Shown here: positions 6,353 through 33,153 of the stretch, one piece after another | Numbering within the stretch: position 1 is the stretch's first letter | How the letters are laid out: each line of letters begins with the position of its first letter | UHGV virus genome: UHGV-0162190 | Origin: a virus | Length of the DNA: 33,203 bases | Direction: 5' to 3' (one strand) | The notes under the pieces: generated by a model | Database searches by the model: none | The model's input: only the letters and a program-made list of their open reading frames with translations | What the model was told of the DNA's origin: nothing | Made by a program: the position numbers and the translations under genes

Positions 6353-6713
6353 CCGTTTAACTCCGTGGTTAATGGGTGCAACTATTTTCTGTTGTGCAGA
6401 GCATGAGACGCTATTTGACCTGGCTGGTCAGTGGATGAAACAACAGACAAAGAAAAGGCGGGTAATCCGCCAGCCTGTCATGATTTGCACTCACTCCTTT
6501 TCCAACTGACAATTTACATAGCCCAAACGCTATCAAATCTGACAGTCTGCTTTGAGCGATCAGCAGACGTTCGTACTTGAGTTGCCATAGATCTTGCTCA
6601 CAATGTCGTGTATCAATCAACTGGGAACAGGTCAATCGTTGCGAATGATATCGATATCTCCTGAAATTAGGGGTATTACTAGGTGGCTAAAGTAACTTGT
6701 TAATGGAGTAGGA

Positions 6714-7439
6714 ATGGCAAACTATGTATCAGGGAATATCATTTCTCAATCGTATGTTCATGTTAATCCTGAGTGGTTAAAAAATGCGACCCCTCAAGAT
6801 AAGAAACTAAGAATCAATGAGATTGAGAAGCAAATAACTGCCTTTGCGAAGAGCCGAATACCTTTTTTTATTGGAAGTGAGGTAGAGATAACAGTTGAGT
6901 TCTCTGAAGGCTCAATCATCGCGAAAATCACCGCTTACGGTAAGATCATCCCACTACTGGGGGGGCTAGTTATCGGATACCCACACTTTAGTGAGGGTGT
7001 TAGAACCATGGTGAAAGATGCACATGATCTAGGTTCGTATATTAACTCCGAGCTGTTATTTCAAACAGGCGCAAAACATAAATCTGAGCGCAAGTCAGTT
7101 GAGGCTCGCTTAGGAGTTTTTGGTATTATTGATCGCGTTAACGCCCAGATTAATGATCTAAGCTTGATCTCTCGGAGGAAGGAAAATTCGCCATCAATCA
7201 CATATAAAAAATTGTTACAGTTGCATGGGGATATCCTCTCATCCCTTGATAAGATTTCTGAAAATGCCCTAGATGACTCAGATGAAAAAATAGCCAAGGA
7301 TATGTGGATTGAAGGCGTATCCGGCATATCTGTGGGACGATCGCATTTCAAATTTAATCTTAAAGGTGATGATGATGTGTACAAAATGTTGGTTGCCGAA
7401 AAGCAGAGCATTCTTGATGACCTGAAAAAAAGGCAATAG
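6714..7439 (+). CDS. Hypothetical cargo protein (241 aa) at the Z/fun-equivalent position; function unknown
   Basis: AT-rich ORF on the strand opposite the late operon, between FI and G. GGAGTAGGA Shine-Dalgarno precedes the ATG. No transmembrane segment and no motif I can recognise. Followed by a hairpin. Confidence 0.6.
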   Translation: MANYVSGNIISQSYVHVNPEWLKNATPQDKKLRINEIEKQITAFAKSRIPFFIGSEVEITVEFSEGSIIAKITAYGKIIPLLGGLVIGYPHFSEGVRTMVKDAHDLGSYINSELLFQTGAKHKSERKSVEARLGVFGIIDRVNAQINDLSLISRRKENSPSITYKKLLQLHGDILSSLDKISENALDDSDEKIAKDMWIEGVSGISVGRSHFKFNLKGDDDVYKMLVAEKQSILDDLKKRQ

Positions 7440-7475
7440 GGCCTAATGCCTCCGTGGTGGGTATATAAAAATCAC

Positions 7476-7511
7476 GGGGAGCAGGGCTAGCTTCGTCTTG
7501 ACCTGCTCCCC
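7476..7511. terminator. Hairpin between the two convergent cargo genes (10-bp perfect stem GGGGAGCAGG / CCTGCTCCCC, 16-nt loop)
   Basis: Inverted repeat read directly from the sequence about 37 nt after the 6714-7439 stop. No clear U-tract, so it may be a factor-dependent terminator or a processing site. Confidence 0.4.
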
Positions 7512-7617
7512 ATAGACATAAATCCGACTGCTTTAGCGATTTCTTTTAATGTACTAGTAACCTTTAATGATTCTGTCAGAGTTGCCGTTATGGGCTGGGT
7601 TGTAGCAGTGACCCGTC

Positions 7618-8082
7618 TCAGAAGTGTTTGTTCTCATAGGCATCTTTCACTCCGGCGTGTTTCTCCGCACAGGCCCGTAGGATGGTGAGGGCGTGCCGGA
7701 TTAACTGCTCACTGCGTTCCGGTTCAAACCAATTACCATTGAATTTTCCGCCGTGAAAGAGATTGTTTCTTACTCGACAGACCAGCAGTAAAATTAGTTC
7801 AGCCCGGTGCCGGGAACTCGGTAGTTTTTCCGACCACATGATCCCCTTTTCACCGTAAATCTGTTTTTTAGGGGGATGCTCTTCGAAGTAATGAATCGCT
7901 TCATTAAGTTTAGAGGTAGACGGGTTTTCGATAACGTCACGCACCTGATCGGAATATCCATTCCAGTCAGCTTTTAAATGGCCTCCATTGATTAAAATCC
8001 CACATGCCTTAAGGCAATATTCATATCGTGAAAACTCAATAAAAAACTCACAGGCCAGTTGTTGTAACATAAAAAACTCCAT
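7618..8082 (-). CDS. Hypothetical cargo protein (154 aa) with an R-x4-H motif (RNNLFH, residues 105-110); possible HEPN-fold RNase
   Basis: AT-rich ORF convergent with the 241-aa gene. The motif sits in the C-terminal third of a small protein, as in HEPN domains. The fold assignment is inferred from the motif only. Confidence 0.5.
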   Translation of the reverse strand: MEFFMLQQLACEFFIEFSRYEYCLKACGILINGGHLKADWNGYSDQVRDVIENPSTSKLNEAIHYFEEHPPKKQIYGEKGIMWSEKLPSSRHRAELILLLVCRVRNNLFHGGKFNGNWFEPERSEQLIRHALTILRACAEKHAGVKDAYENKHF

Positions 8083-8304
8083 ATCCTGTAGGGACTTAAC
8101 TTAAAACAACTATATTAATCATCCATGCTACACATTATAGAACTTATTATGTAACTTTTAGGAATGGTAATTTACAAGCTCAAAGCCTGGATCAATGAGG
8201 ATTTTTTAGCTCCTATATAGCTTGTTGGAAGGTCCGCTTCTGGCACAGTGCGGACTGTCAGATTAGGCTTTACTCTGTGCTATAGATATGTCAGCTCATA
8301 CAAC

Positions 8305-8832
8305 TTATTGCGGCATTTCCGGCCATTCAGGATTTGCAGGATCCACACGGCTGACCAGAACGCTGTAGCGTTCCCATGCTTCCAGTCGGCTGCGTTCCTC
8401 ATCCGTCGCCATATTCAGCCTGACAGCGCGTTCCAGCGGCAAAATCACGGATTCAGCTTCGGAAAGTAAAGCTGCCTTTTGTGATTCTGCCAGTTGCTCC
8501 TGTTCATCTGCCGTATAAATCCGCTTAATCACGGCACCATCCTTAAACATCCATTTACCTGAGTCATCAGCACGTCGGTTGGAGGTAATATCAGGAACCT
8601 CGACAACGCTGAAACCTTCAGGGTTAAGCGTTGAAGCATCTCTGGTGATGCCGACAATTATATTATTCTCGTCGTAAACAATCTTTATCGTGTCTTCCTG
8701 AAAATTACTTACTTCCTCATACCAGTTTTTTCCCTCTTCGGACCATAACCAGATAACATCGAAATTTTTTGTCAGTTGATATTGGGCAACAGTTTTGGGA
8801 TTACCCGCAGTAATATTTTTTAAATGCTGCAT
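8305..8832 (-). CDS. G: Tail fibre assembly chaperone gpG
   Basis: 175-aa ORF immediately downstream of tail fibre H, with a 3-nt gap. Confidence 0.8.
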
Positions 8833-8835
8833 AAA

Positions 8836-11571
8836 TTACACCTGTGCGACGTTATACCATGTGCCATTGATGTATTTTTGTATTGGCCTGAATACTGCGG
8901 GGTCATCACCATCGACTTCACCGACAATACCAAGCCCGGTAATTACGTGCCCTGCTTTCTCATACATCACCCCTTTCTGCATGGTCTGGACAACACGTGT
9001 GCCAAGCCTGATATCTCTCACATAGCGGGAATCAAAGTTACCGTAATCCGAGGGATTAACACGCCCCGTAATATTTATGGTTTTATTACTTTGAATACTT
9101 CCCGAGACAAAGCGCATAACATGGACGCTATTAGCATAAACATCCAGATTACCATCACCATTTTGTTTAAAGCCCGTGTCATTATCACCCAAAACAATCG
9201 AATTACCGCCAAGAGCACTGGATGTTCCTATACCCAGAGCACCATTCAATTGACCACCAGATAACGGCAGTGCACCGACATCTCCCGCTGTAGGTTTTCG
9301 CGTTGTGGTATAAAACTCAGACCAGTCAGCCTCGAATCCGTAACCGTCACGAGCAGAACGATAAAAAATACCGCCGTTCTTATAATTAACGCGGAACTGG
9401 GCGGCGGGACAACTTCCTTCACCGATATTAAAATGAAGAATTAACGTTGATGCCCCACCAGTAGTTGCGTTATAGGCTCCGCTACTCCAGTTCCACCCAA
9501 CGGCTTTATCATTCGCAACGGTGTCTCCTGTTTTTCCTGAAGCAAATGCACCAATATTTTTTGGCGTCAGGTTAATATCTGATGTTCCATCAAACGAAAC
9601 GTTATTAATTTTACGGGCTGTTTTCAGCTTTGTTGCTGTCGCCGCATTACCGGACAGTTCACCAGAAAGGCCAGCACTGAATGTCTGTTTCGCGCCCCAT
9701 GTCTGGGCTTCGTCAATGATTGGTACTCGTCTTGTTGTGATCGTGCGGCTTCCCGGATTTCCTGAAATGCGCACCATAAAAAAGCGGTAGTTGGCTTTAC
9801 TTACAGTGCTGCGCCATACATGCATTGAGCGCCCCGTACCGGAATCATCACTCGGACCAACTGCGATGTTTATCAGGTTGCCATCAATGACGCCCCAGTC
9901 CATACCGTCGGGAATGTTGGTCATATTATCAAGCCGAACGGTTATCAGACTGCCCGGCACAAAATCGTAGGTCTGCCAGTCCAGACTGGATAGTTTTGCC
10001 ACTGCGCCACCGATGCCCAGATTCAGGGGAAGTGAATAAGATGTGTAAACTTCCCGCCATTCGCTCCATGAGCTGCCGGTAAAAACGCGCTCAAACGTGC
10101 GACCTTTAAGGATTGTACCTGTTCCGGCAGTTGTATAACGCTGCCATACGTTAACACCATCAAAGCGCCTCAACACTTCCAGAATACCGAGGACTGTCAC
10201 GCCGTTTCCGTCCAGTACTGGACCGTTGGTCGCTTTACCTGTAACGCTGTAAATACCTGGTGAAGTCACATCATTCAAATCCCCGTCGTAATAACGACTC
10301 TCTGACTGATGACCGACTCTTAACCACGGTTCCCACTGCGGATTTGATGCATCCCAGCTTGCCGCAAGGCAGCGGACGTACATATTTCCACGGCGAGTGG
10401 TATAACGTTGCGTTCTTCCATAATTCCCGCCTTCGAGGATCTCAAGCGTCCCCTGAGCAAAGCCGCCTTCCTCTGGATAATTGCGTTCATATGAAGCTAT
10501 AGCCGAGCTACTGTTACGCCATAAACCAAGATGCTCGGCGGCTCCAAGCGTATTCAGGTCTATAGTCGTACTCAAAGGGCGGGTAGCTGATTGAGTGTGA
10601 CGCCATATGCCCCACGGACCATCAGAGCCATTCCACTTATTGGCGAGTCTGCGTATGTATACATTGCCGTCTCTCGTGGTGAAGCGTTGCGTACCTGCAA
10701 AATTGCCGGCAGCAAAAACCTCAAGCACACCGACAGCATTATCTTCCGGGAAATTTTTCTCCAGTGTTGCGTTAGTTGAGGTAGCTTTAGACCAGATCCC
10801 CAGATAAGCCTTAACGGGACCAAATGTATTCAGATCAGCATCAAGCGGCATTTCGCCATTGTTTTTCATAAACGTCAGGCTGGTAACGCCAACATTGTCC
10901 AGAAAAGCGCCCTTATCTGGAATATCGCCACCGTTCTGGTCTTTCTGCATACGTTTTTCAGCATTGTCATAGGCTGCTTTTACTGCCTTTGGCGTTGCTG
11001 CCAGCTTTTCACTGGTGCTGTTTGTTGCACTGCTTAACTGAGTAAAACCTTTTTCTGTCAGCGTGGCGTCAGGATGGCGGCGGGACTGCTCATGCTCTGC
11101 GATTTTGTCATCGACGTAATCCTGCGTCGCCATCACTGTGCTGGCATCAATACTCAGCTCAACGGATGCCACATTGCTGAGAATAATAACCATGCGGCAG
11201 GTCTGCGCACGTCCGGAGCCTTCAGCCAGTTCTGGTTTATAGCTTTCTGCCATGTTGGATACCGCAATCAGTGTTCCGGCATCGTCATACAGACCAAGCT
11301 CACGCATCCAGAAGCCGCCCACTTCGGGCGGTACAACCAGTTCAGCCACGATATAGTTTTTATTCTTGTTATCCACGCTGACTTTATTCAGAGCGTGACG
11401 CCAGACCTCATGCACCAGTTTCGTCTGACCGGCATCCGGCACCGGCAATTTGCCATTACCATCACCCACGGCCATTGCAGACAGGTTTACTTTTTTCCCG
11501 CCGGGGACAGTGGCGGCTGCCAGCTTTGCGGCTCCGGCAGTAGTGATAACGGTTTTAAATTTCGTGCTCAT
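8836..11571 (-). CDS. H: Tail fibre protein gpH, extended variant (911 aa)
   Basis: Large ORF downstream of baseplate gene I. Internal tandem repeats of a tail-fibre repeat unit (QRFTTRDGNVYIRRLANKW / QRYTTRRGNMYVRCLAASW / WQRYTTAGTG). Longer than P2 gpH, which I recall as about 670 aa. Confidence 0.85.
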   Translation of the reverse strand: MSTKFKTVITTAGAAKLAAATVPGGKKVNLSAMAVGDGNGKLPVPDAGQTKLVHEVWRHALNKVSVDNKNKNYIVAELVVPPEVGGFWMRELGLYDDAGTLIAVSNMAESYKPELAEGSGRAQTCRMVIILSNVASVELSIDASTVMATQDYVDDKIAEHEQSRRHPDATLTEKGFTQLSSATNSTSEKLAATPKAVKAAYDNAEKRMQKDQNGGDIPDKGAFLDNVGVTSLTFMKNNGEMPLDADLNTFGPVKAYLGIWSKATSTNATLEKNFPEDNAVGVLEVFAAGNFAGTQRFTTRDGNVYIRRLANKWNGSDGPWGIWRHTQSATRPLSTTIDLNTLGAAEHLGLWRNSSSAIASYERNYPEEGGFAQGTLEILEGGNYGRTQRYTTRRGNMYVRCLAASWDASNPQWEPWLRVGHQSESRYYDGDLNDVTSPGIYSVTGKATNGPVLDGNGVTVLGILEVLRRFDGVNVWQRYTTAGTGTILKGRTFERVFTGSSWSEWREVYTSYSLPLNLGIGGAVAKLSSLDWQTYDFVPGSLITVRLDNMTNIPDGMDWGVIDGNLINIAVGPSDDSGTGRSMHVWRSTVSKANYRFFMVRISGNPGSRTITTRRVPIIDEAQTWGAKQTFSAGLSGELSGNAATATKLKTARKINNVSFDGTSDINLTPKNIGAFASGKTGDTVANDKAVGWNWSSGAYNATTGGASTLILHFNIGEGSCPAAQFRVNYKNGGIFYRSARDGYGFEADWSEFYTTTRKPTAGDVGALPLSGGQLNGALGIGTSSALGGNSIVLGDNDTGFKQNGDGNLDVYANSVHVMRFVSGSIQSNKTINITGRVNPSDYGNFDSRYVRDIRLGTRVVQTMQKGVMYEKAGHVITGLGIVGEVDGDDPAVFRPIQKYINGTWYNVAQV

Positions 11572-13997: not shown

Positions 13998-14080
13998 GCA
14001 TGTGAGATTGCACAATATATAAAAGTTATGCTATCTGGATTCATTTGTAGAACCACCAGACAACATTCAAGGAGAGCGTA

Positions 14081-14866
14081 ATGGTCAGCTATAATGTGAC
14101 TAATGTGTGGGAGCTAATCGTCTTGTATCTTTTGGTCTTTGTAGTATTAGCATTTTTTAGCTTTGGTAAAAGTAACCTTATGAGGCTTATTGCACATTAT
14201 TTCAAATTTGGATATTCAGATAAAAAATTAAAAAGACTGGACCGCGAGTGGCGCGACATTCAACTATTTAAAATAATTAACGGAATCAATGTATCAGGCA
14301 TCAAAGATGTGAAAATGATACAGCAGGGGTTGATTGATGGAAAACTAAAAACATCGGATTTTTTCCTTACTCGCTTCTGGGGAGACATAACAGAACCGCC
14401 ATGCATCACAAAAACAATGAGTGCAGTCCTGGCCGGAATTCTTTATATTATCTTCGCATGTTGCATACACAACGAGCAATCTGCCATAGTAGAGGATGCC
14501 ATAGCCATACCATATAAAAATATGATGTACCATGTTTATAATGACAAGGTTCTTTTGTTCTCCGACAATAAAACAGATAAGTTCTATAAAGCTTTTAGCA
14601 TTGCCGATTGCAAGAGACTGCAGAACACTTTTGTAACAGACACACTTCCTGCAATCGCCTGCAATAAGCTCTTACAGCTAAACGAGGAGGACTCCGAATG
14701 GTTAAGTCAGGAGATTAAAGATAATAACAGCCACAGAAAAACATTATTAATAATATCCCTCGTCTATTTCACTTCAGGTCTGGTTATACTTCTGTCATAT
14801 ACAAAATTCCTTTACGCCAATAAAAAAGTTGTAGAATACAAATCATCAAATAAAAACCACTCATAA
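14081..14866 (+). CDS. Hypothetical integral membrane cargo protein (261 aa, three predicted transmembrane helices) between V and S
   Basis: AT-rich ORF on the strand opposite the late operon. Hydrophobic helices near residues 12-28, 115-131 and 222-240. No recognisable catalytic motif. Confidence 0.6.
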   Translation: MVSYNVTNVWELIVLYLLVFVVLAFFSFGKSNLMRLIAHYFKFGYSDKKLKRLDREWRDIQLFKIINGINVSGIKDVKMIQQGLIDGKLKTSDFFLTRFWGDITEPPCITKTMSAVLAGILYIIFACCIHNEQSAIVEDAIAIPYKNMMYHVYNDKVLLFSDNKTDKFYKAFSIADCKRLQNTFVTDTLPAIACNKLLQLNEEDSEWLSQEIKDNNSHRKTLLIISLVYFTSGLVILLSYTKFLYANKKVVEYKSSNKNHS

Positions 14867-14937
14867 TCCTCTAAACATTGAGCGACCAGCACAGCCGCTC
14901 AATGTTTAATTGCGCATCAGCCTCTGCCTGGATAAAA

Positions 14938-15390
14938 CTAACGCTCAAGGTGAGCCAGGATAATCCCTTCAATCATCTGCACATCCTCACCGGTAAAGCC
15001 GAGCAGGGGACGCGCCGGATAATCAATTTTCTTACCGTCTTTCCGGGTTTCTTCCGACAGACCGAACTGATGCACACTGGCTATTTTCGGTGACTTCCCG
15101 TCGTAAAACTCCATTGATGCCTGTTCAGGGCTGGCGCGGATATGCAAAAAACGACTGGTGATAAGTTTCGCAAACATTTTTCGCTTAACACGACCAGTCT
15201 TTTTTCTGGCGCTCTGCTGCTGGCGTGGCACGTAGGGTGTGCCGTCCGGGGCTTTCTGTGCCATCACCCGACGCTGCTGACTCTGCCGCAGGCGCTTCGC
15301 CAGTTCGGCACTCAGTCGCCGACGCCCTGACGGTGACAGCGATTCAGTCAGTCCGGTCAGCCGGTCTTCAAAACGCTTAAACTCATTCAT
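14938..15390 (-). CDS. S: Tail completion protein gpS
   Basis: 150-aa ORF downstream of R, overlapping it. Confidence 0.8.
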   Translation of the reverse strand: MNEFKRFEDRLTGLTESLSPSGRRRLSAELAKRLRQSQQRRVMAQKAPDGTPYVPRQQQSARKKTGRVKRKMFAKLITSRFLHIRASPEQASMEFYDGKSPKIASVHQFGLSEETRKDGKKIDYPARPLLGFTGEDVQMIEGIILAHLER

Positions 15391-21311: not shown

Positions 21312-23084
21312 ATGACCATCACCACAGACACCACTCTTTTACACGACCCGCGTCGTCAGGCGGCGCTGCTGTACTGGCAGGGGTTTTCCGTGCCGCAGAT
21401 TGCCGCCATGTTGCAGATGAAACGCCCGACGGTGCAGAGCTGGAAACAGCGCGACGGCTGGGACAGCGTTGCCCCCATCAGCCGTGTCGAAATGAGCCTG
21501 GAAGCGCGGCTGACCCAGCTCATCATCAAACCGCAGAAAACCGGCGGTGACTTCAAGGAAATTGACCTGCTCGGACGCCAGATTGAACGACTGGCACGGG
21601 TAAACCGTTACAGTCAGACCGGCAACGAGGCAGACCTTAATCCGAACGTCGCTAACCGCAACAAAGGCGGGCGGCGCAAACCGAAAAAGAATTTTTTCAG
21701 TGACGAGGCCATCGAAAAGCTGGAGCAGATTTTCTTTGAGCAGTCTTTCGACTATCAGTTGCACTGGTATCGCGCCGGGCTTGAGCACCGCATCCGCGAT
21801 ATCCTGAAATCCCGCCAGATTGGTGCAACGTTTTATTTTTCCCGCGAGGCGCTACTGCGCGCCCTGAAAACCGGTCATAACCAGATTTTTCTGTCGGCCA
21901 GTAAAACGCAGGCGTATGTGTTCCGCGAATACATCATCGCCTTTGCCCGTCTGGTTGACGTTGACCTGACCGGTGACCCGATTGTCCTGGGCAATAACGG
22001 CGCAAAACTGATTTTTCTCGGCACCAACTCCAACACCGCACAGAGCCATAACGGCGACCTGTACGTCGACGAGATTTTCTGGATCCCGAATTTTCAGGTA
22101 CTGCGTAAGGTGGCATCAGGTATGGCCTCACAGAGTCACCTGCGCTCAACCTATTTCTCCACCCCGTCCACGCTGGCGCACGACGCCTACCCGTTCTGGT
22201 CGGGTGAACTGTTTAACCGGGGACGCGCCAGCGCCGCCGAACGCGTGGAAATCGACGTCAGTCATAACGCCCTTGCCGGTGGGCTTCTCTGTGCGGACGG
22301 CCAGTGGCGGCAGATTGTCACCATTGAGGACGCGCTGAAAGGCGGCTGCACGCTGTTCGACATTGAGCAGCTCAAACGCGAAAACAGCGCCGACGATTTT
22401 AAAAACCTGTTCATGTGTGAATTTGTTGACGACAAGGCGTCGGTGTTCCCGTTCGAGGAGCTGCAACGCTGCATGGTCGACACGCTGGAAGAATGGGAAG
22501 ACTATGCACCCTTTGCCGCCAATCCGTTCGGCTCCCGCCCGGTATGGATTGGTTACGACCCGTCACACCGTGGCGACAGCGCCGGATGCGTGGTGCTGGC
22601 ACCGCCGGTGGTGGCCGGTGGCAAATTCAGAATACTTGAGCGTCACCAGTGGAAAGGCATGGACTTTGCCACCCAGGCGGAATCCATCCGCAAACTCACC
22701 GAAAAATATAACGTCGAATACATCGGTATTGATGCCACCGGCCTCGGTGTCGGCGTGTTCCAGCTCGTGCGCTCGTTCTATCCCGCCGCGCGCGATATCC
22801 GCTACACACCGGAAATGAAAACCGCAATGGTGCTCAAGGCAAAAGACGTCATCCGCCGTGGCTGTCTGGAATATGACGTCAGCGCCACCGACATCACCAG
22901 CTCGTTTATGGCTATCCGCAAGACCATGACCAGCAGCGGACGCAGCGCCACCTATGAGGCCAGCCGCAGCGAGGAAGCCAGCCACGCCGACCTCGCCTGG
23001 GCGACCATGCACGCCCTGTTAAATGAGCCACTCACCGCCGGTATCAGCACCCCGCTGACATCCACCATTCTGGAGTTTTACTGA
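21312..23084 (+). CDS. P: Terminase large subunit (ATPase/nuclease) gpP
   Basis: ORF 21282-23084 trimmed to the first ATG (MTITTDTT...), which has a GAGGT Shine-Dalgarno, giving 590 aa as in P2 P. Confidence 0.9.
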   Translation: MTITTDTTLLHDPRRQAALLYWQGFSVPQIAAMLQMKRPTVQSWKQRDGWDSVAPISRVEMSLEARLTQLIIKPQKTGGDFKEIDLLGRQIERLARVNRYSQTGNEADLNPNVANRNKGGRRKPKKNFFSDEAIEKLEQIFFEQSFDYQLHWYRAGLEHRIRDILKSRQIGATFYFSREALLRALKTGHNQIFLSASKTQAYVFREYIIAFARLVDVDLTGDPIVLGNNGAKLIFLGTNSNTAQSHNGDLYVDEIFWIPNFQVLRKVASGMASQSHLRSTYFSTPSTLAHDAYPFWSGELFNRGRASAAERVEIDVSHNALAGGLLCADGQWRQIVTIEDALKGGCTLFDIEQLKRENSADDFKNLFMCEFVDDKASVFPFEELQRCMVDTLEEWEDYAPFAANPFGSRPVWIGYDPSHRGDSAGCVVLAPPVVAGGKFRILERHQWKGMDFATQAESIRKLTEKYNVEYIGIDATGLGVGVFQLVRSFYPAARDIRYTPEMKTAMVLKAKDVIRRGCLEYDVSATDITSSFMAIRKTMTSSGRSATYEASRSEEASHADLAWATMHALLNEPLTAGISTPLTSTILEFY

Positions 23085-24118
23085 TGAGCAAGAAAAAAGG
23101 GAAAACACCGCGACCTGCGGCAAAAAAAATGACTGCCAGCGCCCCGAAAATGGAGGCATTCACCTTTGGTGAGCCGGTGCCGGTACTCGACCGCCGTGAT
23201 ATTCTGGATTACGTCGAGTGCATCAGTAACGGCAGATGGTATGAGCCACCGGTCAGCTTTACCGGTCTGGCAAAAAGCCTGCGTGCTGCCGTGCATCACA
23301 GCTCACCGATTTACGTCAAACGTAATATTCTGGCTTCAACGTTTATCCCGCACCCGTGGCTTTCCCAGCAGGATTTCAGCCGCTTTGTGCTGGATTTTCT
23401 GGTGTTCGGTAATGCGTTTCTGGAAAAGCGCTACAGCACCACCGGTAAGGTCATCAGACTGGAAACCTCACCGGCAAAATATACCCGCCGTGGCGTGGAG
23501 GAGGATGTTTACTGGTGGGTGCCGTCCTTCAACGAGCCGACATCTTTCGCGCCCGGCTCCGTGTTTCACCTGCTGGAGCCGGATATCAATCAGGAGCTGT
23601 ACGGCCTGCCGGAATATCTCAGCGCCCTTAATTCTGCCTGGCTGAATGAGTCGGCCACGCTGTTCCGCCGCAAGTATTACGAAAACGGCGCTCATGCCGG
23701 ATACATCATGTACGTCACCGATGCCGTGCAGGATCGCAACGATATCGAAATGCTCCGCGAAAACATGGTGAAGTCGAAAGGCCGCAACAACTTTAAAAAT
23801 CTGTTTCTCTACGCCCCACAGGGAAAAGCCGACGGCATTAAAATTATCCCGCTCAGTGAAGTGGCAACGAAGGACGATTTTTTTAATATCAAAAAAGCCA
23901 GCGCCGCTGACCTGCTGGACGCGCACCGCATCCCCTTTCAGTTGATGGGCGGCAAGCCGGAGAACGTCGGGTCGCTGGGTGATATTGAGAAAGTGGCAAA
24001 GGTCTTTGTCCGCAATGAGCTTATCCCGCTACAGGACAGGATCCGCGAGATAAACGGCTGGCTCGGTCAGGAGGTCATCCGCTTTAAAAACTACTCACTG
24101 GACACTGACAACGGCTGA
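23084..24118 (+). CDS. Q: Portal protein gpQ
   Basis: 344-aa ORF; its start overlaps the P stop (TGATGA); last gene before cos. Confidence 0.9.
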   Translation: MSKKKGKTPRPAAKKMTASAPKMEAFTFGEPVPVLDRRDILDYVECISNGRWYEPPVSFTGLAKSLRAAVHHSSPIYVKRNILASTFIPHPWLSQQDFSRFVLDFLVFGNAFLEKRYSTTGKVIRLETSPAKYTRRGVEEDVYWWVPSFNEPTSFAPGSVFHLLEPDINQELYGLPEYLSALNSAWLNESATLFRRKYYENGAHAGYIMYVTDAVQDRNDIEMLRENMVKSKGRNNFKNLFLYAPQGKADGIKIIPLSEVATKDDFFNIKKASAADLLDAHRIPFQLMGGKPENVGSLGDIEKVAKVFVRNELIPLQDRIREINGWLGQEVIRFKNYSLDTDNG

Positions 24119-24123
24119 ACATC

Positions 24124-24145
24124 GCCGCCTGCGGGCGGCTTTTTT
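24124..24145 (+). terminator. Rho-independent terminator of the P-Q operon
   Basis: GCCGCC-TGCG-GGCGGC hairpin followed by a run of T residues, about 6 nt after the Q stop. Confidence 0.65.
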
Positions 24146-24286
24146 ACAACCCGCCATCACGCCCTCACACGCTCACCACCGCGCAAAACAGCCCGCAGAC
24201 ACACCGACGCCCAGGCAGGCCAAGTAAACGCCTTCACGACGCGCTCAGACGCTGAAAAAATAAAATCAGCACCACCGCCAGCGCGC

Positions 24287-24305
24287 AGTGCTTTCCCCGC
24301 CTCGC
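24287..24305. other. cos: cos cohesive-end site (P2-type 19-nt sequence)
   Basis: GTGCTTTCCCCGCCTCGCC is the exact reverse complement of the P2 cohesive end GGCGAGGCGGGGAAAGCAC as I recall it; it lies just downstream of Q, as expected. Confidence 0.8.
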
Positions 24306-24455
24306 CCGCCCGCTTCATGAAGCGGTTTGAATGCAGTTGTATACCGACGCAGACTTCCTGCCAGTTCTAGCTACTCATAACAAAAAAAAACATTACAGAT
24401 GAATGCAAAATCATGCAACTAATGAAGGCGTACAGGCTAGGTGAGAAAATAAATG

Positions 24456-25256
24456 CTATTTCATCAGTCCTATAAAAGCTGCTGTCATGCTACCCAATGC
24501 ACCAATAGCAGCAAATAACGTTGCCCAAAACATGCTTTTTTGGCTACGAATATTCTCATTATATCGTTGTTCTTCATTATTGAAGTGATTTAACGTATTA
24601 ATTGCTTTTCCAGTGGGCTTATAACCATCTCGAGTCTTTGAAATGTCCCCACTCTCTACAAGGGAATCCAGACATAAGCGAAGTTCTTTTATGAGTCGAG
24701 AATAATCATCATGGTAGATCCATAAACGTCCTGCCACATCATTCATAATTAGAGTCTCACTGAATGGTTTTTCCCCTTGCTGCTCTCGATAAATTCTGAC
24801 AATTGCAGCCAATACCGTCATTACATCGGTTATCTCCTGCTTGCGTTGTCGATACAAATACTTCTCACGACTTAGCTTTTTATTTTGACGATTCGCTATT
24901 CTTCTAAATCTAAGCACATTAAAAAAAGATAAGTCGTCCAATGAGTCAAACTTCAATTCATGCGCATGATAATAATAAATTCCAGAAAAGGAATTTGATG
25001 TAAGTCGTTCTGGTTTAAGAATTGTATCAATATTGAAAGTTTTATTCTGATGATTCCACTTCTTAACCTTTATAATTCCGTTTGAATAACTATCAAAAAG
25101 ATAGTCATTACCCTCGTCATCCTTAATGTAAACGGAATACATATCGTAATGAATGGCACTCTCATACATTAAACTAATTTTGCCATTTTCAGGAGTCTTC
25201 TTTGACTCAAAAACTTTTAGAAACTTTACAACATCAACTTTATTTTTATACCTCAT
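24456..25256 (-). CDS. Hypothetical C-terminally membrane-anchored protein (266 aa); candidate effector of the RT cassette or an independent defence gene
   Basis: AT-rich ORF with an AAGG Shine-Dalgarno. Soluble N-terminal domain of about 240 aa, then a single C-terminal hydrophobic helix (FWATLFAAIGALGSMTAAFIGL). Lies 165 nt downstream of the RT on the same strand. Confidence 0.6.
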   Translation of the reverse strand: MRYKNKVDVVKFLKVFESKKTPENGKISLMYESAIHYDMYSVYIKDDEGNDYLFDSYSNGIIKVKKWNHQNKTFNIDTILKPERLTSNSFSGIYYYHAHELKFDSLDDLSFFNVLRFRRIANRQNKKLSREKYLYRQRKQEITDVMTVLAAIVRIYREQQGEKPFSETLIMNDVAGRLWIYHDDYSRLIKELRLCLDSLVESGDISKTRDGYKPTGKAINTLNHFNNEEQRYNENIRSQKSMFWATLFAAIGALGSMTAAFIGLMK

Positions 25257-25324
25257 ACATTCAGCCTTGACTGTAAACCACCATATTAAATTATTGCACT
25301 AACGACTCGTACCACTTATTGTTC

Positions 25325-25367
25325 AACCCAGTCAGAATTGAAAGCAAACTTCTGCACTAACTGGGTT
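25325..25367 (-). other. Structured element between the RT gene and the downstream membrane-protein gene
   Basis: 8-bp outer stem (AACCCAGT / ACTGGGTT) enclosing a 5-bp inner stem (CAGAA / TTCTG). No U-tract. Read directly from the sequence. Confidence 0.35.
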
Positions 25368-25421
25368 ACCATCATAATATATCGATACTAATAAAATCCG
25401 ATATCATTATATTTTAGTGTA

Positions 25422-26372
25422 TTAAACCGATGTATTTGCTTTCAACGTCAATACTTTCGATCTGTAACGTTTTTCAATAACCCCCATTGAATATAAACGA
25501 CCAAATAATTTCTTTGCTGTTCTTGTATCTTTAGCTTGTTCTACATCTTTTATTATTTTCCAAAGCTCTATTTCTCTAGCCATAAGATAATGCTGTTCGT
25601 TCCTAACCTTTAAGCTATCCCCAAATACTATAACTCCTGTCACCAGTTTAGGCTTATCCCCAGCATATAATTTCGTTTTAGTTGGATGCATCACGTGTCC
25701 ATGCTTATTAATAATCTTACGAATCACGCTGCAAAACAATCGATTTACATTATCTCCAGAAAAAGTAAGATCATCGACATAAACTGTCATTTTCACACGA
25801 AACTTCTCACAAAGTTGATTCATTTCATCAAACATTCTGGAATTTGCAAAATATGCTAATGGCATACTAATCCGACTACCCGTTGGCAATCGTTCATGAC
25901 AGGTACATATATGAGATAAAATATCAGCCACATCTGGCGACATTTTCATTATTGAGAAAAAGAAAGAAAATATCATTTCTCTTGTTGTTGACGGAAAAAA
26001 AGATTTAATATCTGTAGTCATCAACTTCTGATGATTGAGATGTGCTTTAGCATTTGTTATGTTAGAGCAACTTTTTTTACCAGAGTGCAAATACTCTGGC
26101 ATAGCTATACGCAATAATAAACTCGCAATACGTGTATGCACTACATCTAATTTTTCTAAAGGCTTTTGTATTTTCCGTATTTTATTTTTTTTAGAAAGCT
26201 GTTCAAAAATAGAGTAATTACCCTCATCCCTCTTCAAAGCTGATAGATCATTGATACTAACGCAGAGCAAGTTAGCCAACTTTTTTTTACTTTTAAGTTT
26301 ATAAAGTGGCGAATCCGTAATAGGATAAGATTTATTTTTAGTTGAAACCTTCAGTTTAATCCTTTTTTTCAT
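25422..26372 (-). CDS. Reverse transcriptase, retron-type (316 aa)
   Basis: Motifs in order: K-rich finger motif (SKKNKIRKIQKP); NAKAH (retron NAxxH) followed by DIKSFFPS; LPTGSRISMPLAYFAN; catalytic YVDDLTFSG; HPTKTKLY; and KLVTGVIV (retron VTG motif). Small size, no maturase or endonuclease domain. ATG overlaps the upstream HTH gene. Confidence 0.88.
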   Translation of the reverse strand: MKKRIKLKVSTKNKSYPITDSPLYKLKSKKKLANLLCVSINDLSALKRDEGNYSIFEQLSKKNKIRKIQKPLEKLDVVHTRIASLLLRIAMPEYLHSGKKSCSNITNAKAHLNHQKLMTTDIKSFFPSTTREMIFSFFFSIMKMSPDVADILSHICTCHERLPTGSRISMPLAYFANSRMFDEMNQLCEKFRVKMTVYVDDLTFSGDNVNRLFCSVIRKIINKHGHVMHPTKTKLYAGDKPKLVTGVIVFGDSLKVRNEQHYLMAREIELWKIIKDVEQAKDTRTAKKLFGRLYSMGVIEKRYRSKVLTLKANTSV

Positions 26373-26658
26373 TTCTTTTACTTACCCACTCTAGTATATC
26401 CAGAACTTTCCCTGCCAGTTTTAAACGTAAACTTTTGGATAACCGTCCTTGTGTCCCTAATGATTCTGAAAAAAAGACTAAAGAGGATACTGGCATGTCG
26501 AAATGGGAAGCATAACGCTGTAAAATATCAATCGACGGCACCCATAGTCCGCTTTCAATCTCTACTATTCTGCTTTTTGGAATACCTAAAGATGATGATA
26601 AGTCAACTATTGATTCTTTATGGTATTGCCTTATTAAACGAAGGGCTTTATGCAACAT
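26356..26658 (-). CDS. XRE-family helix-turn-helix protein (about 100 aa), translationally coupled to the RT
   Basis: HTH signature ...ESIVDLSSSLGIPKSRIVEIESGLWVPSIDILQRYASHF. Start set at the second ATG, which has a GGAG Shine-Dalgarno (the first ATG is at 26670). Its 3' end overlaps the RT start. Confidence 0.75.
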   Translation of the reverse strand: MLHKALRLIRQYHKESIVDLSSSLGIPKSRIVEIESGLWVPSIDILQRYASHFDMPVSSLVFFSESLGTQGRLSKSLRLKLAGKVLDILEWVSKRNEKKD

Positions 26659-26694
26659 AGGCAACTCCATCTTGTTGAAACTAGGGAGGACGCA

Positions 26695-26850
26695 TTACTC
26701 ATCTCCCCCTTCAAAGAAGTCAACTGCGCGAGTGATCCAATAAAGTAGTCTAATAAGCCACTTAATTACACCCCAAGCGTTAGGAGTCTTCTTTTTCCGG
26801 TTTAACTTGTTTTGCGCCTGCTGTTCGTTGGTTACTTTATCATTTTTCAT
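26695..26850 (-). CDS. Possible small protein (51 aa, MKNDKVTNEQQ...) with a hydrophobic C-terminus, upstream of the HTH gene
   Basis: Internal ATG of ORF 26695-26988 preceded by GGAGCAGG. Basic stretch followed by WGVIKWLIRLLYWI. The N-terminal part of the listed 97-aa ORF overlaps structured non-coding-like sequence and is probably not translated. Confidence 0.35.
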   Translation of the reverse strand: MKNDKVTNEQQAQNKLNRKKKTPNAWGVIKWLIRLLYWITRAVDFFEGGDE

Positions 26851-27100
26851 GACCTGCTCCTTATGTCCACGGTGTGCAAACGATATGTCTGCTCCAACAC
26901 CATGGCTCGCCCTCATAAGGATGAGATTGAACAGCACCAGCTCCCTGCTCCACGAACCCTTTGTCGCCCAAAGGGTTCGAATACCCATACGCTATACCGC
27001 TTGAATCAGAGACTCCTGTCGCTGACAGAGGCGTTGCGCGGGGTAAATGTTAGAAAGCATTAGCTTTCCACGGGCAATAAATACCCAATTGATGGCGATT
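26851..27100 (-). ncRNA. Candidate retron non-coding RNA (msr-msd) or structured leader of the RT operon; boundaries approximate
   Basis: Non-coding stretch upstream of the RT operon on the same strand. Perfect 11-bp GC-rich hairpin (CGAACCCTTTG-5 nt-CAAAGGGTTCG, about 26953-26979) plus further short stems (CTGTC-GCT-GACAG about 27015-27027; GAAAGC-ATTA-GCTTTC about 27054-27069). I could not identify a1/a2 flanking repeats by eye. Confidence 0.3.
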
Positions 27101-27292
27101 TATCTCACTAACTAACCAATGATTGAATCATACCAAGTAAACCGTTGTATTTGATCTCTCCTTATATAATTTTTTGTTATTAATCAATATAAATAAATAA
27201 CAAAAAGAAATATAGCTAATTTTCATCCGTCTCATCACAATAAATATCAACAAATCAAGAATATCGTTTGATTATCTAGTCTTTCCAATTCA

Positions 27293-29581
27293 TTAAAATA
27301 AAAACAATGCTTCATCTTCAATTCCCGGCCAAACATCAGCAACCGGATACATGAATTTTTTCCCGTCATAATTTACGGTCGCGCCACGCGCCAGCGCCTC
27401 AAGCTCCCATCGCTGAGGGCTGATACCGTTCTGAGCAAGGTCAACGCGGATACGGGTAATTTGCATTCGTTCCGACCTGGTCAGCCTGGCTGATGGCGCT
27501 ATTTCATGCGGTTTTAACGGGCTTCCGTCTCTTTGCTGACGGTTTGGTGTTCTCAGTCCGTGTTTTAATGCACCCCTGAGCGCCCTCACGACCTCCGGGT
27601 CACTCCATTCGATGACACCGTCATCAACCAGATTAAGCACTGCTGCGGCGTGTTCAGAAGGCGTGGGAGCCGGTGACGAAGTATCACCACCGGTGAGCTT
27701 TCCACAGTTATTGACAGGACTCCGAGGCGCGGCGATGCCGCTTTTTAAAGTCAAAGGCTCAACGACCGGAACTTTCGGCACAATGCGCCAGTCCGTCGTT
27801 CTGGTGATATGAATATGACGCGCGCCGAGATGCGGCGCGTAAATGCCGACCACTCTCTCGACTTCTTCCTCGTACTCGTTAACTTCATCCGACGGACTAC
27901 GGGCAACCCTGACAGTCTGACAATCGCGCGGAACATTTGCCCCACCCTGCGCGCTGATATACAACGCAAAATCACCACTGTCTGCGGCAGCGCGTGCAGC
28001 CTCGACGCGTTCGTCAAACTCATCAGCAATGCTGACGCCGCGAGGCAATTTGCGTAGTTCACGGTAAGCCCCCATTGTCGGCAGGCCAACCGTTTTAAAT
28101 TGCGGAATGCGCCACGTTGATGCCCATGCGGTAACAGCCGCGGCAGTGTCTTTCAGCGGCCTGCCGGTATCGTTATCGAGCTGACCATCCAGTGCATAGC
28201 CATCGATGTTTTTTGAGATGTATTTCGCGATATACCCCGCAGCACCGCCCCGGTTAAGGTGTTTTGCCTGAAAACGGTTTCGCGCAGCTCCTCTTTCGTC
28301 GCCATCCTCTTTGAGCGCGTAGCGACGCATGATTTCAATAATCTGGTTACGCTGGCGTGGATTACAAAAAAGCATCATATGCCAGTGCGGCGTTCCGTCG
28401 TGGTGTGGTTCAACAACACGCAAACCGTAGGCCTGTAAATCATTATCCTTGAATGCCGTGCGCATCAGGCTCCAGATACGGCAGAGATAACGCTGCGCAT
28501 CCTTTGGATTAAATGCCTCATCGTTCCAGCCGTGATTTAGCTGGACGGTTTTACTTTCGCCTTTTCTGACCTGACGTGTCGGGTGATACTTTGACGGCGC
28601 GGTCAGCGTGATAAACATCCCCACATCACCCTCTGCGGCGGCGTAACGCTCAATACCGGCAATGGTGTTCATCAGCTCCATCCGGCGAATTTCAGGATTA
28701 GAAATACTGCCCATCACCTTACTGATAAGGTCGATGCGCTCGCCGGTTTCCCTGTTTTCAAGGTCACACGATTTAAGAAATTCCAGATTTGCCTGGCGGC
28801 GTGCACGCACATCACGAATGGCATGTTTACTGGCATAAGGAGAACGGTCTTTATTGACCTCCCCGACAGCAATCAGTAACGCCTCATGCCAGCGCATACG
28901 CTGGCCTTTAAGCTGATGAGTCCACCACTCATCGTTAAACAGGCGGGCAATGGCAGAATATGCCTGCCTCGTGGTCATCTGTCCTTTACGGTATTTTTTC
29001 CAGTAGAGCGGGGAAATATTGAAAGCACGTGCAGCGCCAGCAACATGACCATAGAGGTGAGCCTGCGCCTCATCCGTAAACAGCGATTCTTTTTCGCCAT
29101 GTGCATCAACCCAGGCATCGCAGAGTTCCTCATACATCATGAAAAGCTGCGATGAGATACGGGCAGCAAACTTTTTCAGCTCCTTGTCATTCATCCCCGG
29201 CAGGCGCGCATAGTGGTCACGCTCTGCCAGAAACAGCAACGACGCGTCGGTGTTCATTTCATGGCGCTGATTAACGCGCTCAATGCGCGGCCATAAACGA
29301 CGCTGAAAAGTGGATGTGAGGAAATAAAACCCGTGCACCGGGCTTTTATTGCGCCGGATGTAGTCATAGCGTGAAGTAAACAGCGAGCGCAAAAAGTAAG
29401 GCAGGCGATTAATCGTGGATAAAACACCTTGCACCTGACGCATCTCGTCACGTGTAAGGGGTCTTTCGCGCCCGACGGCCTCGCGTGGCGCGTTCCATGC
29501 ATAAGCACCGGTAAACGTCTCACCGGTGCCTGCGGCAAATGCTGACGGAGGGACAAAACGCCCGGAGGCTTTAACGGCCAT
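27293..29581 (-). CDS. A: Replication initiator gpA (rolling-circle nickase)
   Basis: ORF 27293-29623 trimmed to the ATG at MAVKASGRF, giving about 762 aa. HUH-type motif (EPHHDGTPHWHMMLF) and catalytic tyrosine region (AGYIAKYISK). Confidence 0.88.
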   Translation of the reverse strand: MAVKASGRFVPPSAFAAGTGETFTGAYAWNAPREAVGRERPLTRDEMRQVQGVLSTINRLPYFLRSLFTSRYDYIRRNKSPVHGFYFLTSTFQRRLWPRIERVNQRHEMNTDASLLFLAERDHYARLPGMNDKELKKFAARISSQLFMMYEELCDAWVDAHGEKESLFTDEAQAHLYGHVAGAARAFNISPLYWKKYRKGQMTTRQAYSAIARLFNDEWWTHQLKGQRMRWHEALLIAVGEVNKDRSPYASKHAIRDVRARRQANLEFLKSCDLENRETGERIDLISKVMGSISNPEIRRMELMNTIAGIERYAAAEGDVGMFITLTAPSKYHPTRQVRKGESKTVQLNHGWNDEAFNPKDAQRYLCRIWSLMRTAFKDNDLQAYGLRVVEPHHDGTPHWHMMLFCNPRQRNQIIEIMRRYALKEDGDERGAARNRFQAKHLNRGGAAGYIAKYISKNIDGYALDGQLDNDTGRPLKDTAAAVTAWASTWRIPQFKTVGLPTMGAYRELRKLPRGVSIADEFDERVEAARAAADSGDFALYISAQGGANVPRDCQTVRVARSPSDEVNEYEEEVERVVGIYAPHLGARHIHITRTTDWRIVPKVPVVEPLTLKSGIAAPRSPVNNCGKLTGGDTSSPAPTPSEHAAAVLNLVDDGVIEWSDPEVVRALRGALKHGLRTPNRQQRDGSPLKPHEIAPSARLTRSERMQITRIRVDLAQNGISPQRWELEALARGATVNYDGKKFMYPVADVWPGIEDEALFLF

Positions 29582-29846
29582 ATGAGCCAAAAGCCTCTGA
29601 ACAACGCCTGCTGAGTTGCTCAACCTGCGCGTTTAAATCAGCAAAAGACTTTGCGCTTCCGGTCAGAATATCGTGATGCATCAGGCCGGAAACGAGCTGG
29701 CTTAATTTCGGGTAATAACCAACCACTGCCAGCCATTCCTGACCGGCGTTTTTACCGCTTTCCGCTCTCTTTTTCTCGTGGAGAATAAACTGAAAGCTGT
29801 CACTGGTAACGACATAACGTTCGCCAATTTCAATACGAATACTCAT
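29571..29846 (-). CDS. Small early protein (91 aa), P2 orf83-equivalent position
   Basis: ORF immediately upstream of A in the early operon. Confidence 0.55.
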   Translation of the reverse strand: MSIRIEIGERYVVTSDSFQFILHEKKRAESGKNAGQEWLAVVGYYPKLSQLVSGLMHHDILTGSAKSFADLNAQVEQLSRRCSEAFGSYGR

Positions 29847-32139: not shown

Positions 32140-33153
32140 ATGGCAATCAAAAAACTCGATGATGGTCGATATGAAGTGGACATCCGCCCTACTGGACGTA
32201 ATGGAAAACGCATCCGTAGGAAGTTTGATAAGAAAAGCGAAGCTGTCGCTTTCGAGAAATACACGTTGTACAACCACCACAATAAAGAATGGCTATCAAA
32301 ACCAACAGATAAGCGACGTCTGTCGGAGCTGACACAGATCTGGTGGGATTTAAAGGGTAAACACGAAGAGCATGGGAAATCTAATCTTGGAAAAATTGAA
32401 ATCTTCACAAAAATAACGAATGACCCATGCGCATTTCAAATTACGAAATCGCTTATCAGCCAGTACTGCGCCACCCGAAGAAGTCAGGGTATTAAACCTT
32501 CGAGTATCAATCGTGATTTAACATGTATTAGCGGCATGTTTACAGCCCTGATTGAAGCGGAGTTATTCTTTGGTGAGCACCCTATCAGAGGGACAAAAAG
32601 GCTTAAGGAGGAAAAACCAGACACAGGCTATCTCACGCAGGAAGAAATTGCCTTACTGCTTGCTGCTCTTGACGGCGACAACAAAAAGATTGCGATTCTT
32701 TGCCTGAGTACTGGAGCACGTTGGGGAGAAGCAGCTCGTTTGAAAGCAGAAAATATCATCCATAACCGCGTCACGTTTGTTAAAACGAAAACAAACAAAC
32801 CACGCACCGTCCCGATCTCAGAGGCTGTTGCCAAAATGATCGCGGATAACAAACGAGGTTTTTTATTCCCTGATGCTGATTACCCTCGCTTCAGACGAAC
32901 AATGAAAGCAATAAAACCGGATTTGCCAATGGGGCAAGCCACACATGCACTAAGGCACAGCTTTGCCACTCATTTCATGATTAATGGAGGAAGTATTATC
33001 ACGCTACAACGGATACTAGGTCACACGCGGATTGAGCAAACTATGGTTTACGCTCATTTTGCGCCAGAGTACCTTCAGGACGCCATTTCTCTTAATCCGC
33101 TAAGAGGTGGTACTGAGGCCGAGAGTGTCCACACAGTGTCCACAGTAGAGTAA
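32140..33153 (+). CDS. int: Tyrosine integrase
   Basis: 337-aa ORF with the C-terminal catalytic region (HALRHSFATHF...LGHTRIEQTMVYAHF), downstream of C. Confidence 0.9.
   Translation: MAIKKLDDGRYEVDIRPTGRNGKRIRRKFDKKSEAVAFEKYTLYNHHNKEWLSKPTDKRRLSELTQIWWDLKGKHEEHGKSNLGKIEIFTKITNDPCAFQITKSLISQYCATRRSQGIKPSSINRDLTCISGMFTALIEAELFFGEHPIRGTKRLKEEKPDTGYLTQEEIALLLAALDGDNKKIAILCLSTGARWGEAARLKAENIIHNRVTFVKTKTNKPRTVPISEAVAKMIADNKRGFLFPDADYPRFRRTMKAIKPDLPMGQATHALRHSFATHFMINGGSIITLQRILGHTRIEQTMVYAHFAPEYLQDAISLNPLRGGTEAESVHTVSTVE

Follow-up and report, generated by a model that had tools for sequence, protein, structure and literature searches.

A Type VI retron and a neighbouring cargo gene in the cos-proximal hotspot of a P2-like Escherichia coli prophage

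To what kind of system does the reverse transcriptase (RT) gene in the cargo block of virus genome UHGV-0162190 belong, and which of its neighbours belong to it? The stretch analysed here, called the window below, is 33,203 nucleotides (nt) long and is essentially a whole P2-like Escherichia coli prophage with an integrase at its end (32140-33153). Its open reading frame (ORF) list holds three co-directional minus-strand genes, for a helix-turn-helix (HTH) protein (26670..26356), the RT (26372..25422) and a protein of 266 amino acids (aa; 25256..24456). An earlier note on this DNA had read the block as a retron-like defence system made of RT, HTH partner, possible small peptide and tail-anchored membrane protein, perhaps a rare or uncharacterised variant; the ORF list and the motifs bear out the features that it named, at or near where it had placed them, on the minus strand. 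Judged by sequence, the cassette is a Type VI retron, a new member of an already known kind, and the block very probably consists of two independent cargo modules: a complete Type VI retron of the Retron-Vpa2 lineage, and an autonomous single-gene cargo.

The 316-aa product of the RT gene (25422..26372, minus strand) matches PADLOC RT_VI and Pfam RVT_1. It contains MTVYVDDLTFSG, with the YVDD box (Y198 V199 D200 D201) in the context DDLTFS, as well as ITNAKAHLN (N107, A108, H111) and KLVTGV, where VTG is residues 244-246 (T245, G246). In 22 homologues of 53-82% identity, N107, A108, H111, Y198, V199, D200, D201, T245 and G246 are invariant and V244 nearly so. The RT_VI model aligns over profile positions 1-278 of 279 with 353 bits (2.5e-106), the runner-up model, RT_III-A, reaches 151 bits, and all 25 listed PADLOC matches are retron RTs. 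The best sub-threshold NCBIfam matches are likewise retron RTs. The motifs and the best profile thus agree with the earlier claim of a retron RT.

The protein could nevertheless have been a non-retron defence RT (Abi-P2/AbiK or UG/DRT) or a group II intron RT, with a leader that is not a retron non-coding RNA (ncRNA). Abi-P2 RTs occur at the same P2 hotspot, and a weak match to Drt3a (2.5e-05; 23.8 bits against a cut-off of 200) points the same way. This alternative is almost certainly wrong. No Abi, DRT or RT_IV model is among the 25 best PADLOC matches, the NAxxH and VTG motifs are both present, the 316-aa protein has no maturase or endonuclease domain, and the synteny of HTH gene, small-protein (SP) gene and hybrid RNA described below is conserved between the window and Retron-Vpa2. 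The earlier note had named a best score to a non-retron family as what would speak against it; the profile comparison gave none of Abi-P2, DRT or group II, but RT_VI.

Type VI retrons combine clade-3 RTs with a Cro/C1 HTH protein of 91-110 aa and often a small accessory protein (Mestre 2020, PMC7736814), and their canonical order is ncRNA, SP, HTH, RT. In the window, the gene at 26356..26670 (minus strand) encodes a Cro/C1-type HTH protein that matches PADLOC HTH_VI (2.5e-31) and, weakly, Pfam HTH_3. With the RT matching RT_VI and its partner matching HTH_VI, the cassette classifies as a Type VI retron. Read from 26670 the HTH protein has 104 aa and its gene overlaps the start of the RT gene by 17 nt, in keeping with the translational coupling proposed before. 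The ATG at 26658 (100 aa) is the likelier start, because it has a GGAG 8 nt upstream, is the choice of the Prokaryotic Genome Annotation Pipeline (PGAP), and aligns with residue 1 of the Vpa2-like HTH protein. The combination of HTH protein and small peptide, which had been taken for a sign of a rare or uncharacterised variant, is the defining Type VI architecture (Mestre 2020; Zhang 2025; Garcia-Rodriguez 2026).

We also considered a Type IV retron (Retron-Eco6/Ec48, RT plus an effector with two transmembrane (TM) segments), which belongs to the sister clade (clade 3) and joins an RT with a membrane protein (Mestre 2020), much like the system pictured in the earlier note. This candidate was rejected: RT_IV is absent from the 25 best PADLOC matches, and the TM protein of the window, tail-anchored and with a winged helix, is unrelated to the Type IV effector and not conserved with the RT.

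Mechanisms of Type VI retrons are described in two preprints, one on Retron-Vpa2 and Retron-Eco12 (Zhang et al. 2025 bioRxiv 10.1101/2025.10.22.683967) and one on Retron-Sen3 (Garcia-Rodriguez et al. 2026 bioRxiv 10.64898/2026.04.27.721009). For all three, anti-phage defence and toxicity of the SP are reported (Zhang 2025; Garcia-Rodriguez 2026). In the former, conserved 7-nt direct repeats lie in the loops of the msd and of a riboregulator, and the copy of the first repeat in the multicopy single-stranded DNA (msDNA) is proposed to pair with the second (Zhang 2025). For comparison we used a V. parahaemolyticus locus (L136) whose 55-aa SP has K15, I39, F43 and F45; because these are the residues mutated in the preprint, we take the locus to be of Vpa2 type. 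The window has the same operon order as Vpa2, namely hybrid RNA (hyRNA; msr-msd plus SP), HTH and RT, and its RT shares 53% identity with cluster P0108 of V. parahaemolyticus RTs, located at the Vpa2-like locus. The HTH proteins are 47% identical and share R7 of Vpa2 (numbering from 26658). The two also differ: besides these RT and HTH identities the SPs are 28% identical (51 against 55 aa), the window repeat reads GGGCGA and not GGACGA, the msd stem is shorter in the window, and the window retron sits in a P2-like prophage hotspot while L136 and a second such locus (L135) occupy a chromosomal site near rpoD and hipA.

The leader upstream of the HTH gene is where this likeness can be followed in most detail. 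Over 27150-26680 (471 nt) it folds at -163.7 kcal/mol (z = -5.06), and none of 100 shuffled sequences is as stable. We aligned 17 distinct loci homologous to the hyRNA region (alignment A4), comprising E. coli alleles, a Klebsiella phage, P2_2H1, IMG/VR prophages, Acerihabitans, an Enterobacteriaceae metagenome-assembled genome and Vibrio crassostreae. The RNAalifold consensus has 114 pairs with 97.4% of cells paired. It contains 30 compensatory pairs, compared with 10.0 +/- 2.3 in column shuffles (0/500 reach 30) and with 5-8 in controls where the partners were slid by 1-3 columns. A structured ncRNA is therefore located, by covariation and fold stability, within the interval that the earlier note had proposed for a search (26700-27300). 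That note had described a hairpin-rich leader of about 250 nt; strong structure is what we find, and the length is put at about 270 nt. An Rfam scan of 24000-27600 in E-value mode returned chance-level matches and no retron family.

The predicted hyRNA spans 26676..27120 on the minus strand, about 445 nt, and comprises an msr-msd-like part with the SP coding sequence (CDS) embedded in it; it can be aligned with the Vpa2-like locus. Ahead of it, at 27127..27136 (minus strand), lies a candidate extended -10 promoter element (TTGGTATGAT; TGnTATGAT), assigned from a conserved block and its resemblance to the consensus type. Of the 17 aligned loci, 13 keep this block, CTTGnTATGAT, and four (L119, L012, L022 and L014) diverge there; homology with the non-P2 locus L012 starts at 27123, just downstream of the block. 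Transcription would accordingly begin near 27120. The end given earlier for the block, 27100, falls short, as the system runs on to about 27136. A promoter scan of 24100-27400 found promoter-like sites at or below chance (8, against 10.8 expected).

Within the hyRNA (all on the minus strand), two msr-like 5' stem-loops at 27087-27071 and 27069-27052 (helices 2 and 3) are 100% paired, with 3 and 1 compensatory pairs. They are followed by the candidate msd reverse-transcription template, a long stem at 26982..27045 whose basal helices are conserved (alignment columns 140-165 with 237-255) and whose interior varies by more than 20 nt between loci; its position corresponds to the 63-nt msDNA-covered stem-loop of Vpa2. 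Next comes a perfect 10-bp hairpin at 26953..26979 (helix 8: 99.4% paired, 4 compensatory pairs). Its loop carries repeat copy 1, GGGCGAC (26969-26963), and is invariant in all 17 loci. From the account of Vpa2 (Zhang 2025) we infer that this hairpin becomes the 5' stem-loop of the full-length msDNA.

The riboregulator arm at 26858..26936 (minus strand; helices 10-13) is closed by UGCUGUUC (26936-26929), which pairs with GAACAGCA (26826-26819) inside the SP CDS. Within it, the sequence UCCUUAUG (26921-26914), complementary to the Shine-Dalgarno (SD) sequence and hence termed anti-SD, pairs with the SD-containing CAUAAGGA (26865-26858). This anti-SD:SD helix 11 is 99.3% paired with 2 compensatory pairs, and helix 12 changes from GC to AU in 8 sequences. 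The riboregulator loop holds repeat copy 2, GGGCGAG (26912-26906). A long-range helix brackets the SP gene as a whole: IR1, UGGAGCAGGGAG (26941..26952, minus strand), pairs with IR2, CUCCCUAGUUUCA (26688-26676), just 3' of the SP stop codon. This helix 9 has 11 pairs, 100% paired, but shows only one-sided changes (G-U/A-U/G-C), so that it is conserved without covariation; IR2 is kept in the Vibrio loci too. On the sequence evidence, the SP ribosome-binding site is sequestered within a covariation-supported RNA fold. Vpa2 has the same arrangement, with the ribosome-binding site and AUG of its SP in stem-loops, long-range pairing around the SP, and paired 7-nt repeats in the msd and riboregulator loops. 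In the enterobacterial loci both repeats have GGGCGA; in the Vpa2-like locus GGACGAA stands at both places (alignment A5). That the two change together between lineages is a small comparative point in favour of the model in which msDNA hybridises to the second repeat.

The SP itself is a predicted toxic effector of 51 aa, MKNDKVTNEQQAQNKLNRKKKTPNAWGVIKWLIRLLYWITRAVDFFEGGDE, encoded at 26695..26850 on the minus strand. An AAGGAG stands 7 nt upstream of its ATG (26850), the ORF is intact at exactly 51 codons in 17/17 distinct loci, PGAP annotates it in a 99.9%-identical genome (WP_016233353.1), and it matches phrog_15287 over its full length (1e-34). Although only 28% identical, it shares with the SP of the Vpa2-like locus a hydrophobic C-terminus ending in F-[DE]-G-G-[DE], and it has I39/V43/F45 at the positions numbered I39/F43/F45 in Vpa2. 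It lies outside the clusters of 75-79-aa SPs (cl2075, cl2760 and cl3272) and is compatible with the heterogeneous 'Large' lineage, to which Vpa2 belongs. We predict that it is the expected retron effector, acting with a hydrophobic C-terminal helix. The possible small peptide mentioned by the earlier note is thus a real and conserved ORF, but it is not an oddity, since such a protein is the effector that a Type VI retron should have. Longer versions have been annotated: the mechanical ORF list gives a 97-aa ORF at 26695-26988 (minus strand), which extends the SP upstream into the ncRNA, and gp41 of P2_2H1 (L004 3066-3458; 393 nt, about 130 aa) is likewise over-extended. Judged by the conserved SD and ATG, the product has 51 aa. 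The exact SP sequence occurs on 424 contigs of the protein collection, compared with 85 for the exact RT sequence, so the SP allele is spread more widely than the RT allele.

How would such a retron work in the prophage? By homology with Retron-Vpa2 we infer the following steps. The retron module (about 27136-25422, minus strand) would comprise the promoter, the roughly 445-nt hyRNA with the template and the SP gene, the HTH gene and the RT gene. In an uninfected lysogen the HTH protein would restrain reverse transcription and the SP would stay translationally silent. A phage bringing recombination functions or functions that inhibit RecBCD would cause msDNA to accumulate. The loop of the msDNA 5' hairpin, complementary to repeat copy 2, would then hybridise to the riboregulator loop and open the anti-SD:SD helix, allowing the SP to be translated. 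Finally the SP, via its hydrophobic C-terminal helix, would arrest the cell, an abortive infection that would protect the lysogen population. The second module (25256-24456), a membrane-anchored winged-helix protein, would merely be co-resident in the hotspot.

A different mode of control is reported for Retron-Sen3 of Salmonella, where ssDNA and SP are constitutive, the HTH protein is a post-translational antitoxin and the system performs RecBCD surveillance (Garcia-Rodriguez 2026). The window retron could be controlled in the same way, with loss of RecBCD freeing a toxin that is made all the time. This mode has been shown for an enterobacterial Type VI retron (Sen3 preprint), the HTH gene overlaps the RT gene in both, and mutation of the HTH protein is toxic in Vpa2 too. 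Sen3 and the window also have in common the order SP-HTH-RT, an upstream ncRNA with a sequestered SP ribosome-binding site, and IR1-IR2 flanking the SP. However, in the cl2075 lineage, of which Sen3 is a member, the SPs have 75-79 aa with an N-terminal extension of about 25 aa (79 aa in Sen3), while the window SP has 51 aa. The window hyRNA, moreover, can be aligned with the Vpa2-like locus, and the likeness takes in both the paired 7-nt repeats and the sequestered SD. Because SP length and hyRNA both group the window with the Vpa2-like lineage and not with cl2075, we consider Sen3-type control rather unlikely here. The behaviour of Eco12 also argues for the Vpa2 mode. For this Type VI retron of E. 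coli a phylogenetic relationship to Vpa2 is described; when driven by its native promoter it reportedly defends against lambda-vir, with no basal msDNA detected (Zhang 2025). The preprint text gives no sequence for Eco12, which may be identical to the allele of the window, to that of O157 type (RT identity 82%) or to that of P2_2H1 type (RT identity 78%).

The setting of the block bears on the second part of the question, the membership of the 266-aa protein. The block is flanked by Phage_GPA (27293-29623, minus strand) and Phage_portal (23084-24118, plus strand), and a near-identical (99.9%) RefSeq locus is annotated by PGAP with matching flank genes. By its flanks, the cargo sits in the P2 A-Q (old/tin) cos-proximal hotspot, as the earlier note had placed it. 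Also as described there, the block is AT-rich, with a GC content of 0.31-0.38 compared with about 0.55 in the flanks. It thus resembles the old/tin-type cargo of P2 in its gpA-gpQ position near cos and in being an AT-rich exchangeable block, and differs from it in gene content. The window allele is found in 10 complete genomes in RefSeq. According to Rousset 2022 (PMC9122126), a paper that also cites Odegrip 2006, the cargo of P2 hotspots includes retrons, and two or more systems share many of these hotspots. The RT of the O157 allele (WP_000746343) appears in the tables of that paper, and among eight additional P2-hotspot systems described there as cloned, three are reported active, none of them a retron.

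The gene at 24456..25256 (minus strand) encodes a tail-anchored protein of 266 aa with a hydrophobic C-terminal tail, belongs to phrog_7611, and is here counted as a neighbouring cargo gene and not as a retron part. The earlier note had included it, and a five-part variant in which it is the effector or an accessory of the retron has several points in its favour. It lies on the same strand, starting 165 nt downstream of the RT stop, a terminator scan of 24100-27400 detected no intrinsic terminator in the spacer between the two genes, and membrane proteins serve as effectors elsewhere among the retron types (Type IV). Furthermore, in a locus of Acerihabitans arboris (L012), within a non-P2 conjugative element, a 74%-identical RT is followed after about 460 nt, on the same strand, by a homologue with 37% identity.

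The comparison with other loci argues otherwise. Related retron loci in O157:H7 FRIK944, a Klebsiella phage and P2_2H1 (about 83%, 81% and 79% identity over the matched DNA) have other genes between RT and cos, including an opposite-strand FRG/PDC-S15 gene. Homology with the retron relatives ends at 25418-25453, around the RT stop codon, while homology with phrog_7611 relatives ends at 25244, at the start of the 266-aa ORF, so that each block of homology stops at the borders of the ORF. The spacer in between (25257..25421, minus strand) appears to be a junction between two cargo modules: it is homologous neither to the retron relatives nor to the relatives of the 266-aa protein, and its sequence is confined to the 10 E. 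coli genomes with exactly this arrangement. The earlier note had described it as structured, but its fold is not significant (z = -0.80, with 42/200 shuffles equally stable). Among about 35 loci with an RT identity of at least 55%, phrog_7611 accompanies the retron only in the window allele and L012, and most phrog_7611 loci have no RT. A neighbour-joining tree nests the window copy among retron-less copies, 71% identical to one from Enterobacter, and places the L012 copy as sister (76%) to a copy adjacent to a PDC-S32 gene; homology between L012 and the PDC-S32-adjacent locus covers the phrog_7611 ORF alone. These separate positions indicate that the two retron adjacencies arose independently. 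The retron family is present in 100/5426 complete E. coli genomes, or about 4.6% of the roughly 2154 with P2-type flanks, so that chance co-residence of the two genes is unsurprising. Since the gene is also found as the sole gene of the hotspot, and a Type VI retron already has its effector in the SP, the five-part reading looks very improbable, and the 266-aa protein is probably no retron component but an autonomous neighbouring cargo.

Loci related to the window show further combinations of the same kind. In the Acerihabitans arboris element (L012 2711-5662, NZ_WUBS01000011.1) the Type VI retron lies between VirB8/VirB9 and TrbL/VirB6 genes of a type IV secretion conjugative element and is followed by the phrog_7611 homologue and a DUF2971/PDC-S31 gene; the retron module thus travels between the hotspots of P2 and type IV secretion elements. 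In other P2-like phages this retron family has single-gene PADLOC candidates as hotspot partners, an opposite-strand FRG/PDC-S15 gene in P2_2H1 (L004 320-1684, NC_049386) and a same-strand DUF2971/PDC-S31 gene in another locus (L120 4586-5503). It appears that the occupants of the neighbour slot come from a common pool of small defence candidates.

What, then, is the 266-aa protein? Searches of PADLOC, Pfam and NCBIfam with this protein, with the 243-aa partner described below and with distant relatives gave no match, and PHROGs gave only families of unknown function. In an AlphaFold2 model (pLDDT 82.5) the N-terminal part is a beta domain of six strands. A long helix and a winged helix come next, and the C-terminus is another long helix, of which the membrane anchor is a part. 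A Foldseek search of viral structures returned nothing at E <= 0.001, and a literature search on the RefSeq accessions and phrog_7611 returned no papers. With HMMER the family comprises 678 clusters at 50% identity (E <= 0.001), nearly all of 250-300 aa. We inspected its surroundings in the window and in loci L005-L011, L092-L098 and L139-L191. In about 25 loci from several genera the gene stands behind a gene for a 243-aa two-TM protein (phrog_3403), in 7 loci (L166-170, L187 and L188) it is the sole gene between gpA and the portal gene, and elsewhere it follows a DinI-like gene, accompanies a SEC-C protein in P4-like satellites, adjoins a PDC-S32/AbiJ_NTD4 gene or lies in conjugative elements.

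The frequent association with phrog_3403 raises the question whether the window copy is the orphan half of a two-gene module, its partner having been displaced by the retron, in which case it may be non-functional here. The 243-aa and phrog_7611 proteins diverge in parallel, and the copies most closely related to that of the window do have the partner. However, intact phrog_7611 genes exist without the 243-aa gene (alone or in the DinI-like, PDC-S32 and SEC-C contexts), the window ORF is intact and 96-100% conserved in the 10 genomes, and a search of the gaps between RT and phrog_7611 in the window and L012 found no remnants of 243-aa or AbiJ_NTD4 partner genes. A displaced partner is therefore a real but minor possibility.

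Some observations weigh against the reading of the block as a Vpa2-lineage retron beside an independent gene. The mechanism is borrowed from a relative with only 53% (RT), 47% (HTH) and 28% (SP) identity. The existence of Sen3, a Type VI retron with a different mode, means that the regulatory mode of the window retron is not certain. IR1-IR2 and several other helices are invariant and hence not proven by covariation, and several relatives have an msd stem longer by about 20 nt. Lastly, in two independent lineages, the window clade and Acerihabitans L012, a Type VI retron is followed on the same strand by phrog_7611, and for a rare gene this double adjacency leaves some room for a functional link. 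In its strongest form, phrog_7611 would be a modular membrane component that plugs into either the 243-aa protein or a Type VI retron and that has joined Vpa2-like retrons twice; we regard this as improbable. If true, it would make the locus a five-part Type VI variant that couples the output of msDNA or SP to a membrane-anchored nucleic-acid-binding protein. In a weaker form, phrog_7611 would itself be a new single-gene determinant of anti-phage defence or exclusion, with a TM anchor added to a domain order that may be likened to that of CRP/FNR-type regulators (N-terminal nucleotide-binding beta-roll, dimerisation helix, C-terminal winged HTH).

Outside the retron block, the window has a second AT-rich island, with a GC content of 0.378 over 14001-15000 inside the structural gene region, where a 261-aa ORF (14081-14866, plus strand) lacks a Pfam or PADLOC match and may mark a further slot for prophage cargo. 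A third stretch of lower GC content (0.43-0.48 over 6001-10000) includes ORFs of 241 aa (6714-7439, plus strand) and 154 aa (7618-8082, minus strand), likewise without Pfam or PADLOC matches, between the ORFs at 5162-6352 and 8305-8832. In E. coli strain 65COLEC (NZ_CP070914.1, 99.9% identical), PGAP calls a 48-aa 'vacuolating cytotoxin domain-containing protein' (L001 2944-3090, minus strand, about 24100-24240 of the window); it overlaps the end of the portal gene and the cos-proximal region and looks like a spurious call.

The presence of retrons in P2 hotspots is already catalogued, as Rousset 2022 (PMC9122126) documents. What the present analysis adds is more specific. The cassette, whose genes carry the RefSeq names 'reverse transcriptase family protein', 'HTH' and 'hypothetical', can be relabelled as a Type VI retron, and the tempting assignment of the adjacent membrane protein as its effector is corrected. 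What is left as a curiosity is an uncharacterised membrane-anchored winged-helix protein that adjoins a Type VI retron in two independent lineages. Its family, phrog_7611, is flagged as uncharacterised cargo that recurs in the hotspots of P2, P4 and conjugative elements. For the retron family, the window provides a prophage-borne E. coli member beside the Vibrio and Salmonella models, and with it a native host setting for the model in which msDNA derepresses translation, to which the co-changing 7-nt repeats add one comparative argument.

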